From NCBI RefSeq assembly GCF_003334385.1, contig NZ_QOWN01000089.1: a DNA stretch of 4,160 nucleotides, one strand, 5' to 3'. Positions 587-3,790 of the stretch are shown piece by piece (position 1 is the first letter of the stretch; every line of letters begins with the position of its first letter). The position numbers and the translations under genes are program-made. This stretch comes from Escherichia coli (lineage in GTDB: Bacteria; Pseudomonadota; Gammaproteobacteria; Enterobacterales; Enterobacteriaceae). The notes under the pieces were generated by a model that saw only the letters and a program-made list of their open reading frames with translations, was not told where the DNA came from and made no database searches.

Positions 587-662
587 GGCCCTTTAGCTCA
601 GTGGTGAGAGCGAGCGACTCATAATCGCCAGGTCGCTGGTTCAAATCCAGCAAGGGCCACCA
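587..662 (+). tRNA. ileZ: tRNA with anticodon CAT; closely resembles enterobacterial tRNA-Ile2 (lysidine-modified CAU, reads AUA) rather than tRNA-Met
   Basis: 76-nt cloverleaf: acceptor GGCCCTT/AAGGGCC, D-stem GCTC/GAGC, anticodon loop CTCATAA (anticodon CAT), T-arm GCTGG-TTCAAAT-CCAGC, discriminator A, encoded CCA. From memory it is near-identical in architecture to E. coli ileX-type tRNA. Confidence 0.85.
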
Positions 663-669
663 TCACATA

Positions 670-746
670 CCGCCATTAGCTCATCAGGAAAGAGCGCCAG
701 CCTTCGAAGCTGGTTGCGCGGGGTTCGAGTCCTCGATGGCGGTCCA
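670..746 (+). tRNA. argN: tRNA-Arg (anticodon TCG)
   Basis: 77-nt cloverleaf: acceptor CCGCCAT/ATGGCGG, D-stem GCTC/GAGC, anticodon stem CCAGC/GCTGG with loop CTTCGAA (anticodon TCG), T-arm CGGGG-TTCGAGT-CCTCG (one G-U), encoded CCA. Confidence 0.85.
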
Positions 747-759
747 TTATCGGTATTCT

Positions 760-836
760 GCGTTGTTAGCTCAGCCGGACAGAGCAATTGCCTTCTAAGT
801 AATCGGTCACTGGTTCGAATCCAGTACAACGCGCCA
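760..836 (+). tRNA. argO: tRNA-Arg (anticodon TCT, reads AGA/AGG)
   Basis: 77-nt cloverleaf: acceptor GCGTTGT/ACAACGC, D-stem GCTC/GAGC, anticodon stem ATTGC/GTAAT with loop CTTCTAA (anticodon TCT), T-arm ACTGG-TTCGAAT-CCAGT, encoded CCA. Confidence 0.85.
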
Positions 837-849
837 CACTTATTTTCCT

Positions 850-876
850 GGCTCGCTTCGGCGGGCCTTTTAATTT
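850..876 (+). terminator. Rho-independent terminator closing the tRNA cluster
   Basis: 7-bp GC-rich stem GGCTCGC/GCGGGCC (one U-G wobble, valid only on the + strand) with a TTCG (UUCG-type) tetraloop, followed by TTTTAATTT. Confidence 0.65.
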
Positions 877-999
877 GCTGAAAAAGAAAACATCAGATGG
901 TTAGTCGGGTATCAGTTATCTGGTGAAATTTTTAAATACCTCACAATTCAGGAAGGTGATTATTGTTTTTCTGGTGGGGAATTTGTTAAAAATCACTCC

Positions 1000-1113
1000 G
1001 CATGATGAATCCCCCTAAGCGGTGGGGCGACTGGCAAGGCTCCATTACGATGGTCACAATCCGCAGATTTAGTTTGCCAGGCTGAATCTACCGGGAGGCA
1101 CCCGGCATCATGC
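1000..1113 (+). ncRNA. Candidate structured RNA element, copy A (unknown function; possible sRNA or cis-acting leader/antitermination-type RNA)
   Basis: Closing helix P1 1000-1007/1106-1113 (GCATGATG/CATCATGC); hairpin Pa CCCC(1012-1015)/GGGG(1024-1027); helix Pb CTGGCAA(1031-1037)/TTGCCAG(1074-1080) with apical CCAT-TACG-ATGG hairpin (UACG tetraloop); 10-nt conserved linker GCTGAATCTA; hairpin Pc CCGGG-AGGCA-CCCGG (1091-1105). Helices are supported by compensatory changes relative to copy B. The coding frame is not conserved between copies. Confidence 0.45.
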
Positions 1114-1140
1114 ATAATGTGGAAAATTGGAAATGTATTC

Positions 1141-1174
1141 AGGCCTCTACGAATTTTAGTAGAGGCTTTTTTTT
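1141..1174 (+). terminator. Rho-independent terminator downstream of element A
   Basis: 8-bp stem GCCTCTAC(1143-1150)/GTAGAGGC(1159-1166), 8-nt loop, followed by eight consecutive T (1167-1174). Confidence 0.75.
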
Positions 1175-1178: not shown

Positions 1179-1205
1179 AAAAAAAGCCCGTCTATGGCAG
1201 CGGGC
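1179..1205 (-). terminator. Possible minus-strand intrinsic terminator (convergent partner of 1141..1174)
   Basis: On the minus strand: hairpin GCCCG/CGGGC (5 bp, 10-nt loop) followed by a 7-nt U-run (complement of A-run 1179-1185). Weaker than its unit-B counterpart. Confidence 0.35.
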
Positions 1206-1403
1206 AAGTATGCATGAGAATACATTTTTTATTATTTGCCTGAAAATAGTACCCTGAGGTTATTGTTGTTTTCAACAGGCTGATTTGTGTTCTGATCGGG
1301 GATGTGACAAGGAACATACGTTCTTATGTGAAAATGTTAAATTCTTCACATTTCAGTGAGTTGAGTGTTGATTTCGTTTTATCTTTTTTGTTAAAAAAGT
1401 ATT

Positions 1404-1529
1404 GCATGGTGAATCCCCCTGTGCGGTGGGGCGACTGGTGACAACAATTCATCATCCGTGATGACCCAGAAGAGATCGCGGGTTCAGTGGCACCGGGCTG
1501 AACTCACCGGGAGGCACCCGGCACCATGT
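1404..1529 (+). ncRNA. Candidate structured RNA element, copy B (paralog of 1000..1113)
   Basis: P1 1404-1411/1522-1529 (GCATGGTG/CACCATGT; the outer pair is G-U); Pa CCCC(1416-1419)/GGGG(1428-1431); Pb CTGGTG(1435-1440)/CACCGG(1491-1496) with internal U-G wobble, apical TCATCA-TCCG-TGATGA hairpin (1449-1464, UCCG tetraloop); linker GCTGAACTCA; Pc CCGGG-AGGCA-CCCGG (1507-1521). Confidence 0.45.
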
Positions 1530-1555
1530 TCATGGTGATACAGAAATGCGGCTTC

Positions 1556-1580
1556 AGCCCCTCTCCGGAGGGGCTTTCTT
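1556..1580 (+). terminator. Rho-independent terminator downstream of element B
   Basis: 7-bp stem GCCCCTC(1557-1563)/GAGGGGC(1568-1574) with TCCG tetraloop, then T-rich tract TTTCTT. Confidence 0.55.
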
Positions 1581-1586
1581 ATGGAC

Positions 1587-1614
1587 AAAAAAGCCCGCGC
1601 TGGGAGACGCGGGC
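1587..1614 (-). terminator. Minus-strand intrinsic terminator (convergent partner of 1556..1580)
   Basis: On the minus strand: 7-bp stem GCCCGCG/CGCGGGC (1593-1599/1608-1614), 8-nt loop, followed by a 6-nt U-run (complement of A-run 1587-1592). Confidence 0.55.
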
Positions 1615-1797
1615 GGCAAGGAATAAACAATAAAACGTGAAGTAATATTTCAGCTGGCGAATAATACCCCATAGTAATCACTCTGCGCAACTGCGCGGCC
1701 TTTTTCGTATTGCGGGCTGTAGTCTCCCTTCTGCCATTGTCCTGTAACTTCCGGACTTCAGCTCGCTCCTTATCTGACTCACAACATTATCCCGACC

Positions 1798-1803
1798 GGG
1801 AGG
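1798..1803 (+). promoter_or_regulatory. Shine-Dalgarno sequence of the esterase gene
   Basis: GGGAGG located 4 nt upstream of ATG 1808. Confidence 0.55.
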
Positions 1804-1807
1804 ATTC

Positions 1808-3790
1808 ATGACATTTAAACACTACGATGTGGTCAGGGCGGCGTCGCCGTCAGACCTTGCGGAGCGACTGACACAAAAACTGAAGGAGGGGTGGCAGCCA
1901 TTTGGCAGCCCTGTCGCCATCACGCCCTATACCCTGATGCAGGCCATTGCGGCGGAAGGTGATGTCACCACACCGGTGGTGGTGCAACCGTCGGGTGATG
2001 GTGGCGCTGTTATCAGCACCACCAGCGAACCGGAATATTACTTTGTCATTGCGCTGGCCGGGCAGTCCAACTCGATGTCTTTTGGCGAGGGGCTGCCGCT
2101 GCCGGATACGTATGATCGTCCTGACCCGCGTATTAAGCAACTGGCGCGTCGCAGCACGGTGACACCGGGCGGTGCGGCCTGTGCATATAACGACATTATT
2201 CCTGCAGACCATTGTCTGCATGATGTGCAGGACGTGAGTAATCTGAATCACCCGAAAGCAGACCTCAATAAAGGGCAGTATGGCTGTGTGGGGCATGCCC
2301 TGCATGTGGCCAAAAAACTGCTGCCGTTTATGCCTGCCCGTGCGGGGATCCTTCTTGTCCCGTGTGGACGTGGCGATTCGGGATTTACTGCGGGAGCAGA
2401 GGGCGCGTTTAATGAGGCGTCGGGTGCGACAGCGGGCTCTTCCCTGTGGGGGGTGGATAAACCGTTGTATCGTGACCTGGTCAGCAGAACGCGTGCAGCC
2501 CTGAAGAAAAATCCGAAAAACGTGCTGTTGTCGGTGATCTGGATGCAGGGGGAAAAAGATGTCAGTTCGGGGAGACATGCAGAGCACAATGCACTTTTTC
2601 TTGCCATGGTAAATCAGTTCCGTACGGAACTGGCAGATGTGGCAGAGCAGTGTACTGGCGGGACAACGGCCAGCGTCCCGTGGATTTGCGGTGATACCAC
2701 GTACTACTGGAAGGAAAGGTATGCAGCGCCGTATGAGGCGGTTTACGGTGGGTATAAAGGCAAAGCTGCGCAGAATATTCACTTTGTGCCGTTGATGACG
2801 GATGAGCATGGTGCGAATGTGCCGACAAACGAGCCGTCAGAAGATCCGGACATTATCACGGCGGGATACTATGGTGCCGCGTCACGCAGTAATGGTAACT
2901 GGACGACAGCCGATCGTAAAACGCACTTCAGCTCCTGGGCGCGAAGAGGCATTGTTTCAGATCGGCTGGCAGGAGAGATACTGGTGCGAGCCGGGCGTTT
3001 GCTGCCGTTCCTGAGCGGGCAGTCTGCACCGCTGGCGACCACGCCAGCCTCCACGGGGGATGCACAGTCTGGCTCTGCGGGTCAGACGCAACAGCAGGGT
3101 GCAGGTACTTCTGCAGGCGGTCATACTGAAGCCGTAACAAGAATGGTGGCCGGATATGATGCGAACAGTGGCAGTGGTGTATGGACAGAGCAGCAGTGGA
3201 ATGCGTCCGGTGGTAAAGGCACTGTGACGGATGACAGTGGCAGGAAGGCGCTGCGACTGGAAAAACAGCCGGGTAAACTGACCTCCTGGAAGATGTTCCG
3301 TACTGTTGCGGTGGAGGAGGCAAAAAATCTTCTCAGTAAGGGAGGTGAAATTGCCGTGCGGTTTAAGATCCCGGAGGGTGTCGAACTGGTTAACGGTCAG
3401 TTTGTCTTTGGTCTGTACTGGCCGGTGTCGCAGTGGGCGTCAGGCGCGACAGCAAACAGCATGCTGGCGTCCTTCTTCCTTCAGACGGATGCATCAAATC
3501 TGAATCTGATGTACCACAAGGGGGAGTCGAATGCGCAACTGGGCACATTTGGGGCATTTGACCATAACTGGCATACAGTTGTTTTCCGCTTTGCGGGAAA
3601 TAACAGCGAAAAAGTGGTGCCGGTGATTGATGATGCAGAGCAGTCTGCGTTTGACCTGGTGATGTGGACAAATGATGGCTTTACAGCAGATACGCTGACG
3701 CTGACAGATATCACGGGGGCAAAAGCGACGTATCCTGTACTGCTTGATACGGTCACAGTCAAAGTTAACGAAAGCCGGGCATCATCATAA
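1808..3790 (+). CDS. nanS-p: Prophage-type sialate 9-O-acetylesterase (NanS-p-like): N-terminal DUF1737-like region, SASA/SGNH esterase core, low-complexity linker, C-terminal beta-rich putative carbohydrate-binding domain
   Basis: 660-codon ORF with SD and stop TAA 3788-3790. GQSN block at codons 85-88 (nt 2060..2071) is the SGNH/SASA-type nucleophile motif. Size, N-terminal segment and position downstream of an ileZ-argN-argO-type tRNA trio match NanS-p esterases of EHEC lambdoid prophages (recalled from memory, not searched). Ser/Gly/Thr/Gln-rich linker around nt 3040-3130. The antisense ORFs inside it are shadow ORFs. Confidence 0.8.
   Translation: MTFKHYDVVRAASPSDLAERLTQKLKEGWQPFGSPVAITPYTLMQAIAAEGDVTTPVVVQPSGDGGAVISTTSEPEYYFVIALAGQSNSMSFGEGLPLPDTYDRPDPRIKQLARRSTVTPGGAACAYNDIIPADHCLHDVQDVSNLNHPKADLNKGQYGCVGHALHVAKKLLPFMPARAGILLVPCGRGDSGFTAGAEGAFNEASGATAGSSLWGVDKPLYRDLVSRTRAALKKNPKNVLLSVIWMQGEKDVSSGRHAEHNALFLAMVNQFRTELADVAEQCTGGTTASVPWICGDTTYYWKERYAAPYEAVYGGYKGKAAQNIHFVPLMTDEHGANVPTNEPSEDPDIITAGYYGAASRSNGNWTTADRKTHFSSWARRGIVSDRLAGEILVRAGRLLPFLSGQSAPLATTPASTGDAQSGSAGQTQQQGAGTSAGGHTEAVTRMVAGYDANSGSGVWTEQQWNASGGKGTVTDDSGRKALRLEKQPGKLTSWKMFRTVAVEEAKNLLSKGGEIAVRFKIPEGVELVNGQFVFGLYWPVSQWASGATANSMLASFFLQTDASNLNLMYHKGESNAQLGTFGAFDHNWHTVVFRFAGNNSEKVVPVIDDAEQSAFDLVMWTNDGFTADTLTLTDITGAKATYPVLLDTVTVKVNESRASS

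Follow-up and report, generated by a model that had tools for sequence, protein, structure and literature searches.

A three-tRNA cassette of Stx2-type lambdoid phages in a toxin-free Escherichia coli prophage, and its match to codons over-used in the prophage and rare in the host

We analysed a 4,160-nucleotide (nt) stretch of Escherichia coli contig NZ_QOWN01000089.1, referred to here as the window (positions are numbered on the whole stretch unless another locus is named), which carries three adjacent transfer RNA (tRNA) genes. Homology and gene order identify the window as late-region DNA of an stx-negative lambdoid prophage integrated at yecE, and the trio as the ileZ-argN-argO tRNA cassette of Stx2-type lambdoid phages, found here in a toxin-free prophage. 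Four of the codons that the trio is predicted to read, AGA, AGG, CGG and ATA, are used 2.4 to 5.8 times more in the prophage than in host core genes. We consider it likely that the trio is an optional accessory cassette that would add decoding capacity for codons over-used by the phage and scarce in the host, chiefly for regulatory and accessory genes rich in rare codons. A sequence-only reading of the window had proposed that the tRNAs support expression of the phage's own late genes, citing rare codons in the two genes next to the trio. The observation behind that reading was confirmed and its interpretation was partly supported.

The window is 99.0% identical over its full length to the prophage at yecE in E. 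coli JNEC-KY176 (coordinates of the JNEC-KY176 locus are given as L001). The gene order in that prophage is integrase, early genes, Q, a PemK/MazF-type toxin gene, a small open reading frame (ORF), a methyltransferase, the three tRNAs, an esterase, lysis genes and then head and tail genes.

ARAGORN identified exactly three tRNA genes in the window, all on the + strand and all with an encoded 3' CCA. They are an Ile2-type tRNA with a CAT anticodon at 587..662 (ileZ), a tRNA-Arg with a TCG anticodon at 670..746 (argN) and a tRNA-Arg with a TCT anticodon at 760..836 (argO), which score 72.5, 55.7 and 66.7 bits against the Rfam tRNA model (gathering score 29 bits). ARAGORN labels the CAT tRNA as a methionine tRNA, either elongator or initiator, and we rejected this label because the gene resembles ileX. 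It is 89.5% identical to K-12 ileX, 67.5% identical to the elongator metT and 59.7% identical to the initiator metZ. It also has the acceptor pairs C4-G69 and C5-G68 as in ileX, where metT has TA at positions 4-5, and these pairs are a TilS determinant of Ile2 tRNAs. RefSeq labels the gene as tRNA-Ile at the matching locus, and the sequence is 100% identical in VT2-Sakai and PhiR49_2. The CAT tRNA is expected to read AUA after lysidine modification of C34.

The Arg(TCT) tRNA shares 74% identity and the whole anticodon loop with K-12 argU, has a G73 discriminator and is expected to read AGA and, less well, AGG. The Arg(TCG) tRNA is expected to read CGA and CGG. The identity rules of arginyl-tRNA synthetase call for A20 (D loop) and C35 (anticodon); in the alignment, both Arg tRNAs have an A after the GG of the D loop and both have C35. 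The Arg(TCG) tRNA matched none of the four K-12 Arg isoacceptor families that were compared (ACG, CCG, UCU and CCU), and to our knowledge K-12 has no UCG tRNA-Arg species. The assignment of the three genes as CAT (Ile2-type), TCG and TCT tRNAs in the sequence-only reading is borne out by ARAGORN, Rfam and the similarity to ileX. Weak Rfam matches in the window (Plastid-ycf2 antisense to the Ile tRNA, OmrA-B, anti-hemB and UCA1) are far under their gathering scores and were dismissed as chance.

Codon use was compared between the annotated coding sequences of the prophage (14,073 codons) and core genes of the same strain (26,885 codons). Insertion sequence (IS) elements and short pseudogene fragments were left out of the prophage set, and the IS-truncated tape-measure gene was kept. 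The six rarest sense codons in the host set are AGG (0.7 per 1000), AGA (1.3), ATA (3.5), CTA (3.7), CGA (4.0) and CGG (4.2). The three tRNAs jointly read five of these six, and the codons that the sequence-only reading had called rare in E. coli are all among them. A rough combinatorial estimate puts the chance that three random anticodon species would all read codons among the host's six rarest at P ~0.002-0.003. The anticodon set of the trio is non-random.

Three of the codons are strongly enriched in the prophage (P < 1e-10 for each): ATA at 8.5 vs 3.5 per 1000 in the host (odds ratio (OR) 2.5), AGA at 7.6 vs 1.3 (OR 5.9) and AGG at 4.1 vs 0.7 (OR 5.6). The prophage frequency of these codons is higher than that of the host, as the sequence-only reading had supposed. 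CGG is used at 13.3 vs 4.2 per 1000, likewise a strongly significant excess, rising to 16.1 in the late genes. CGA is not enriched (4.3 vs 4.0 per 1000, OR 1.06, P = 0.74) and ranks 22 of 61. When all 61 codons are ranked by the prophage to host ratio, the top four are AGA (5.8), AGG (5.5), CGG (3.1) and ATA (2.4), all of which are read by the trio. This rank test is the best support for a real match between the tRNAs and codon use. The idea that the trio matches codons rare in the host and over-used in the phage therefore stands for the codons ranked 1 to 4 but not for CGA, and it is CGG that fits the UCG tRNA. The tRNAs found in variant cassettes, Thr(UGU), Gly(UCC) and Lys(UUU), read ACA, GGA and AAG, which rank 5, 7 and 8.

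The GC content at third codon positions (GC3) of the late genes is 0.615 vs 0.551 in the host. Because late-gene GC3 is above that of the host, the late-gene codon excess is not a simple A+T bias, and A+T bias as the whole explanation was rejected for these genes. The frequency of ATA, AGA and AGG combined is 25.4 per 1000 in the early genes vs 17.7 in the late genes, the early genes being richer in ATA and AGA. By gene, the rare-codon load is 54 per 1000 in int, 60 in the cI-like repressor and 105 in the MazF-like toxin gene, and it is 78 in stx2A of relatives and 49 in nleC. Structural genes are nearly without these codons, with 4.7 per 1000 in the major capsid gene and 0 in the major tail gene. 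The emphasis of the sequence-only reading on late genes is not upheld by these figures.

The particular codons cited from the neighbouring genes are all in frame: AGG at 1835-1837 (codon 10), CGA at 1865-1867 (codon 20) and ATA at 2978-2980 (codon 391) in the esterase gene, and ATA at 370-372 in the methyltransferase gene. As evidence, however, four codons in two genes are anecdotal, and a few such codons in neighbouring genes are no more than chance would give. In the esterase gene the four rare codons occur 12 times (18.2 per 1000), where the host rate would give 6.3 (binomial P = 0.027), and the gene is within the host range, at the 79th percentile of host genes. All three codon classes are present in 11 of the 34 host genes of at least 300 codons.

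In the mechanism that we propose, the Ile2 tRNA would be modified by host TilS (lysidine) to decode AUA, the Arg(UCU) tRNA would decode AGA and AGG, and the Arg(UCG) tRNA would decode CGG and CGA. Host tRNAs for these codons are scarce, and the extra copies supplied by the cassette would raise their supply. The likely beneficiaries would be the integrase, the repressor, toxin genes (stx2A in relatives) and other acquired genes, more than the esterase beside the cassette or the abundant late structural proteins. The cassette is optional, the same codon bias occurring in related phages that do not carry it.

A conserved promoter-like element and a terminator bound the cassette, which appears to be self-contained. 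A putative sigma-70 promoter is located at 549..577 (+ strand), with TTGCAG at 549-554, a 17-nt spacer and TATTAT at 572-577, followed by the G+C-rich CCTGCGCCC up to the tRNA 5' end. In VT2-Sakai, a "putative tRNA promoter" is annotated 10-38 nt ahead of the first tRNA gene; it corresponds to 549-577 of the window, and our promoter call is based on this positional agreement together with conservation. Eight cassettes show no variation in the -10 hexamer or in the TTG of the -35 element, and in three cassettes with unrelated upstream DNA the homology starts at the -35 element. At the right edge, a terminator scan identified a terminator-like hairpin, GGCTCGCTTCGGCGGGCC followed by TTTTAATTTG, at 850..877 (+ strand). 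The VT2-Sakai annotation also has a terminator 14-37 nt beyond the third tRNA gene, and this maps to 850-873. Homology among three carriers stops just past the hairpin, beyond which lie stx2AB in VT2-Sakai, small RNAs (sRNAs) in the window, and a small hypothetical ORF and then holin in PhiR49_2. Further upstream in the prophage, a pR'-like promoter at L001 18187-18215 overlaps Q at its end, a tR'-like hairpin is located at L001 18270-18285, and three further terminator-like hairpins lie between the latter and the methyltransferase. We infer from this arrangement that the cassette may be transcribed on its own and also within the Q-antiterminated late transcript.

Stx2 phage records name the cassette genes ileZ, argN and argO, and the cassette (547-880) is 95.1% identical over 97% of its length to VT2-Sakai and many Stx2a phages. 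It is present in 285 phage records, which are mostly Stx2 phages and none of which is named Stx1; 222 of them fall in the 95-99% identity band. Counting matches that cover at least 80% of window 547-880, the cassette was found in 2,290 of 5,426 complete E. coli genomes, at 7,573 places and with up to 13 places per genome.

We examined the tRNA content of eight cassettes. All eight begin with Ile2(CAT) and seven end with Arg(TCT), and the cloverleaves of Ile2 and Arg(UCU) are intact at every locus carrying those genes. The middle slot is occupied by Arg(TCG) in the window, VT2-Sakai and PhiR49_2, by Arg(TCT) in Stx2_95 (via one anticodon base change) and by Lys(TTT) in PPompW_EH1846. The middle tRNA is disrupted in an Stx2e prophage and in SCU-176, and the CV839-06 cassette consists of Ile2, Lys(TTT), Thr(TGT) and Gly(TCC). 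These variants are located at 15346-15422 in L018 (Stx2_95), 1616-1691 in L019, 1539-1848 in L020, 1624-1704 in L021 and 1617-1717 in L022. Six aligned middle-slot variants have a common acceptor stem, with one compensatory change (T7-to-C with A66-to-G) in the Lys variant. The labile middle tRNA is the reader of CGA, a codon without phage excess, and the conserved Ile2 and Arg(UCU) tRNAs match codons with strong excess. Taken together, the tRNAs found in the slot (Ile2, Arg UCU, Arg UCG, Thr UGU, Gly UCC and Lys UUU) correspond to codons of rank 1-5, 7 and 8. We tentatively suggest that in lambdoid phages a modular unit of promoter, tRNAs and terminator may occupy the slot after Q, with a membership that follows the rank order of phage-over-host codon excess, and in which the middle tRNA may have been retargeted from UCG to UCU to UUU on a conserved acceptor-stem scaffold; we would not yet bet on this idea.

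We also compared the prophage with other phages and with a genomic island. The phage panel was analysed with one uniform greedy ORF calling, which inflates rare-codon rates slightly relative to annotated coding sequences, so rates from the panel are compared only like with like. For the five codons, the three carriers (the window prophage, PhiR49_2 and Stx2_95) have 41.2 vs 17.0 per 1000 in the host. Nearly the same codons head the rankings of lambda and PhiR12_1, each of which has four of the five among its top five. The selC genomic island, which has no tRNAs, has 24.8 per 1000 for four codons vs 24.4 in the prophage. For ATA, AGA and AGG combined, the late genes of the window prophage exceed those of lambda (17.7 vs 12.7, OR 1.4, P = 0.009) but show no difference from those of PhiR12_1 (OR 1.08, P = 0.5). 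From the panel, island and PhiR12_1 controls we therefore conclude that the codon bias is a property of the lambdoid and horizontally acquired gene pool in general.

A number of results weigh against the proposed function. In the small panel of phages, the carriers are not above the non-carriers (lambda, PhiR12_1, HK97 and VT1-Sakai) in their use of the five codons (41.2 vs 43.0 per 1000, OR 0.96, P = 0.17). Because phages without the tRNAs use these codons equally or more, the cassette is dispensable and codon use has not co-evolved with its carriage. PhiR12_1 has no tRNA genes, and the host given in its record is E. coli K-12 MG1655; its esterase region is 96.5% identical to that of the window, and 14 of the 15 rare codons are retained in it, codons 10, 20 and 391 among them. 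The stx1A gene has 60 rare codons per 1000 in a tRNA-less phage. According to a 2026 preprint (PMC13015707), the tRNA adaptation of Escherichia phages with few tRNAs is not significantly different from that of phages with none. Within the cassette itself, the middle Arg(UCG) tRNA is often altered or lost, and the copy in the window has an unusual U73 discriminator where a purine is expected. The putative promoter matches 8 of 12 consensus positions and was not listed by a consensus scan.

The explanation favoured by the sequence-only reading is that, in lytic growth, the tRNAs serve the adjacent late genes (the esterase, the methyltransferase and the late operon). With Q, the pR'-like promoter and the tR'-like terminator all upstream of it, the cassette could be co-transcribed with the late genes after induction, and these genes are above the host in ATA, AGA, AGG and especially CGG (16.1 vs 4.2 per 1000) as well as above those of lambda. 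Even so, we regard this explanation as unlikely, given that the esterase is at an unexceptional percentile of host genes and its rare codons are kept in the tRNA-less PhiR12_1, whose late genes do not differ from those of the window prophage. The codons are more frequent in the early than in the late genes and almost missing from the major capsid and tail genes, the PhiR49_2 cassette has no adjacent esterase, and the conserved promoter-like element of the cassette suggests expression independent of late transcription. That element and the terminator which bound the cassette, as in phage "morons", are in keeping with lysogenic conversion, in which the tRNAs would be expressed from their own promoter in the lysogen, mainly to the benefit of the bacterium (its toxins, effectors and islands) and with little effect on the lytic programme. 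This would fit the several terminator-like hairpins between the pR'-like promoter and the cassette, the position of the cassette amid accessory cargo (stx, esterase and sRNAs), the richness of the selC island, nleC and stx2A in the codons (24.8, 49 and 78 per 1000) and the presence of the cassette in 2,290 of 5,426 genomes at up to 13 places per genome. On the other hand, the putative promoter is weak by consensus and the cassette is kept also in the 285 phage genome records. Lysogenic conversion overlaps with the function that we propose, differing from it in the beneficiary, and we consider it possible but rather less than probable.

Phage tRNAs could also act as insurance, making good host tRNAs lost to cleavage or depletion in the course of infection; anticodon nucleases and colicin D, which acts on tRNA-Arg, are examples of agents that could cause such losses. 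Two of the three tRNAs are Arg tRNAs, a MazF-type RNase toxin gene lies 1.8 kb upstream, and some variant cassettes carry tRNA-Lys(UUU), which is not strictly a rare-codon decoder. tRNA-Lys(UUU) is a target of anticodon nucleases. However, the Ile2 and Arg(UCU) tRNAs have exactly the anticodon loops of host ileX and argU, with no sign of escape changes, and the codon-demand rank already covers every tRNA of the slot, including Lys via AAG (rank 8), which makes insurance very unlikely in our view. We give still less credence to the possibility that the tRNAs have little function, being passengers, relics of phage integration into host tRNA genes or mere points at which phage modules recombined. 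Homology between relatives does break exactly at the cassette edges, marking module junctions, the middle tRNA has decayed or been lost in some copies, and a 2026 preprint (bioRxiv 10.64898/2026.05.13.724894) takes tRNA hits near prophage sRNAs as integration hot spots. The cassette, though, is ~16 kb inside the prophage (integrase at L001 3507-4793, tRNAs at 20587) and not at the attachment site, and it is found in phage genome records, 285 in all; integration-site remnants were rejected on these grounds. The passenger explanation is also opposed by the non-random anticodon set, the compensatory acceptor-stem change in the Lys variant, the Ile2 tRNA that is 100% identical in three carriers and the Ile2 and Arg(UCU) cloverleaves that are intact wherever present. 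A decoding cassette for codons over-used in the phage and scarce in the host remains the reading that we prefer.

The closest known counterpart of the trio is ileZ-argN-argO of VT2-Sakai and 933W (L0100-L0102 in 933W), with the same anticodons in the same order and ~95% nt identity over promoter, tRNAs and terminator. There are a few base differences; in the Arg(UCU) tRNA, for example, VT2-Sakai has G37 vs A37 in the window. In Stx2 phages, the tRNAs follow Q, in many cases after a DNA methylase, and precede the stx slot, the esterase and the lysis genes, which is the position that they have here. The order in VT2-Sakai is Q, late promoter, terminators, tRNAs, stx2AB and an esterase homologue. 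In Stx2_95, which has an integrase type in common with the window prophage, it is Q, methylase, tRNAs, stx2AB and yjhS. Unlike VT2-Sakai, the window has no stx2AB after the tRNAs and has two diverged copies of an STnc100-family sRNA instead. K-12 ileX/ileY and argU have the same anticodons and identical anticodon loops, and the Ile2 and Arg(UCU) tRNAs of the window are phage-borne extra copies. Phage "morons", as described by Hendrix and colleagues, are accessory units with their own promoter and terminator that lie between conserved lambdoid genes. The cassette is like a moron in its promoter-like left edge (the putative promoter with 8 of 12 consensus positions), its terminator at the right edge and its variable presence among close relatives, and is unlike one in that its cargo is tRNA genes and not a protein gene. 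The order Q, methylase, tRNA, stx slot, esterase and lysis also appears in a published figure legend (PMC3491183, Fig. 5). Phages SfI, Sf6, ST64T, PS3 and 21 carry tRNAs of different species (Asn GUU and Thr UGU) in the same slot after Q, with the same proposed role. According to the authors of the SfI study (PMC3636060), ACA, which is read by the UGU anticodon, is over-used in the phage. ACA ranks 5 in the window prophage, and a Thr(UGU) tRNA is present in a variant cassette.

The cassette is preceded in the window by the 3' part of the methyltransferase gene (1..546, + strand; 181 codons and a stop codon at 544-546), a position upstream of the tRNAs that agrees with the Stx2-type arrangement. 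The full gene has 352 codons (L001 19488-20546, RefSeq annotation). It does not start at 52: the gene is cut by the window edge and the frame is open from base 1, with a second ATA at 10-12 in addition to the one at 370-372. The frame also has AGG at 511 and five CGG codons. The partial protein has matches to NCBIfam adenine-specific DNA methyltransferase models with scores under the curated cut-offs. Between Q and the methyltransferase, in the late region, lies the PemK/MazF-type toxin gene (L001 18454-18798), which is without an annotated antitoxin partner and has the highest rare-codon load of the prophage (12 of 114 codons).

Downstream of the cassette, two STnc100-family sRNA copies are located at 970-1178 and 1374-1586 (+ strand; Rfam scores of 122 and 147 bits). 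The copies are in tandem and diverged, each with a terminator hairpin at its end, and they occupy the slot of stx2AB in Stx2 phages. Relatives have a single STnc100 copy, which follows stx or the tRNAs and precedes the next gene. AsxR is not present in the window. STnc100 is related to PasD sRNAs according to a 2026 preprint. Between the second copy and the start of the esterase gene there are terminator-like hairpins at 1593-1614 (- strand) and 1683-1698 (+ strand), the former back-to-back with the sRNA terminator. The NanS-p-type sialate O-acetyl esterase gene (1808..3790, + strand, 660 codons) is a neighbour outside the cassette; it has the Pfam domains DUF1737, SASA and DUF6645 and is named "SASA family carbohydrate esterase" by RefSeq. 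It is followed by an annotated DUF1378 gene (3930-4124, + strand, 64 codons) with three AGG codons (4005, 4029 and 4044), equal to 47 per 1000 and denser than in the esterase gene. No NCBIfam model matched the esterase, DUF1378 or MazF-like protein; the esterase and the MazF-like protein were classified with Pfam. Overall, the prophage resembles a toxin-free counterpart of the yecE-integrating Stx2a phage Stx2_95, with integrase type, early region and methylase-tRNA module in common. Its esterase region is closest to the tRNA-less PhiR12 phages (96.5%), a sign of mosaic exchange at the cassette edges.

The cassette and its link with rare codons have been known since 1997, and what we report is a real but ordinary finding. 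Plunkett et al. in 1999 reportedly made the same codon point for 933W. The tRNAs adjacent to stx2 have been linked to rare codons since Schmidt et al. 1997, as cited in PMC3636060, and the codon-compensation reading is repeated in PMC7946995. The cassette is annotated in public records and present in more than 40% of complete E. coli genomes, so it carries little weight as a discovery. If the tentative model of a modular slot held for the thousands of copies, the cassette would offer a natural setting in which to study how anticodons switch under codon demand. Our analysis refines the usual story in several respects: the codon bias is pool-wide, CGG and not CGA is the codon for the UCG tRNA, regulatory and accessory genes are the richest in these codons, and the cassette is an autonomous-looking unit with a labile middle member. 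These refinements bear on how the expression of toxins and effectors might depend on prophage tRNA dosage in pathogenic E. coli.

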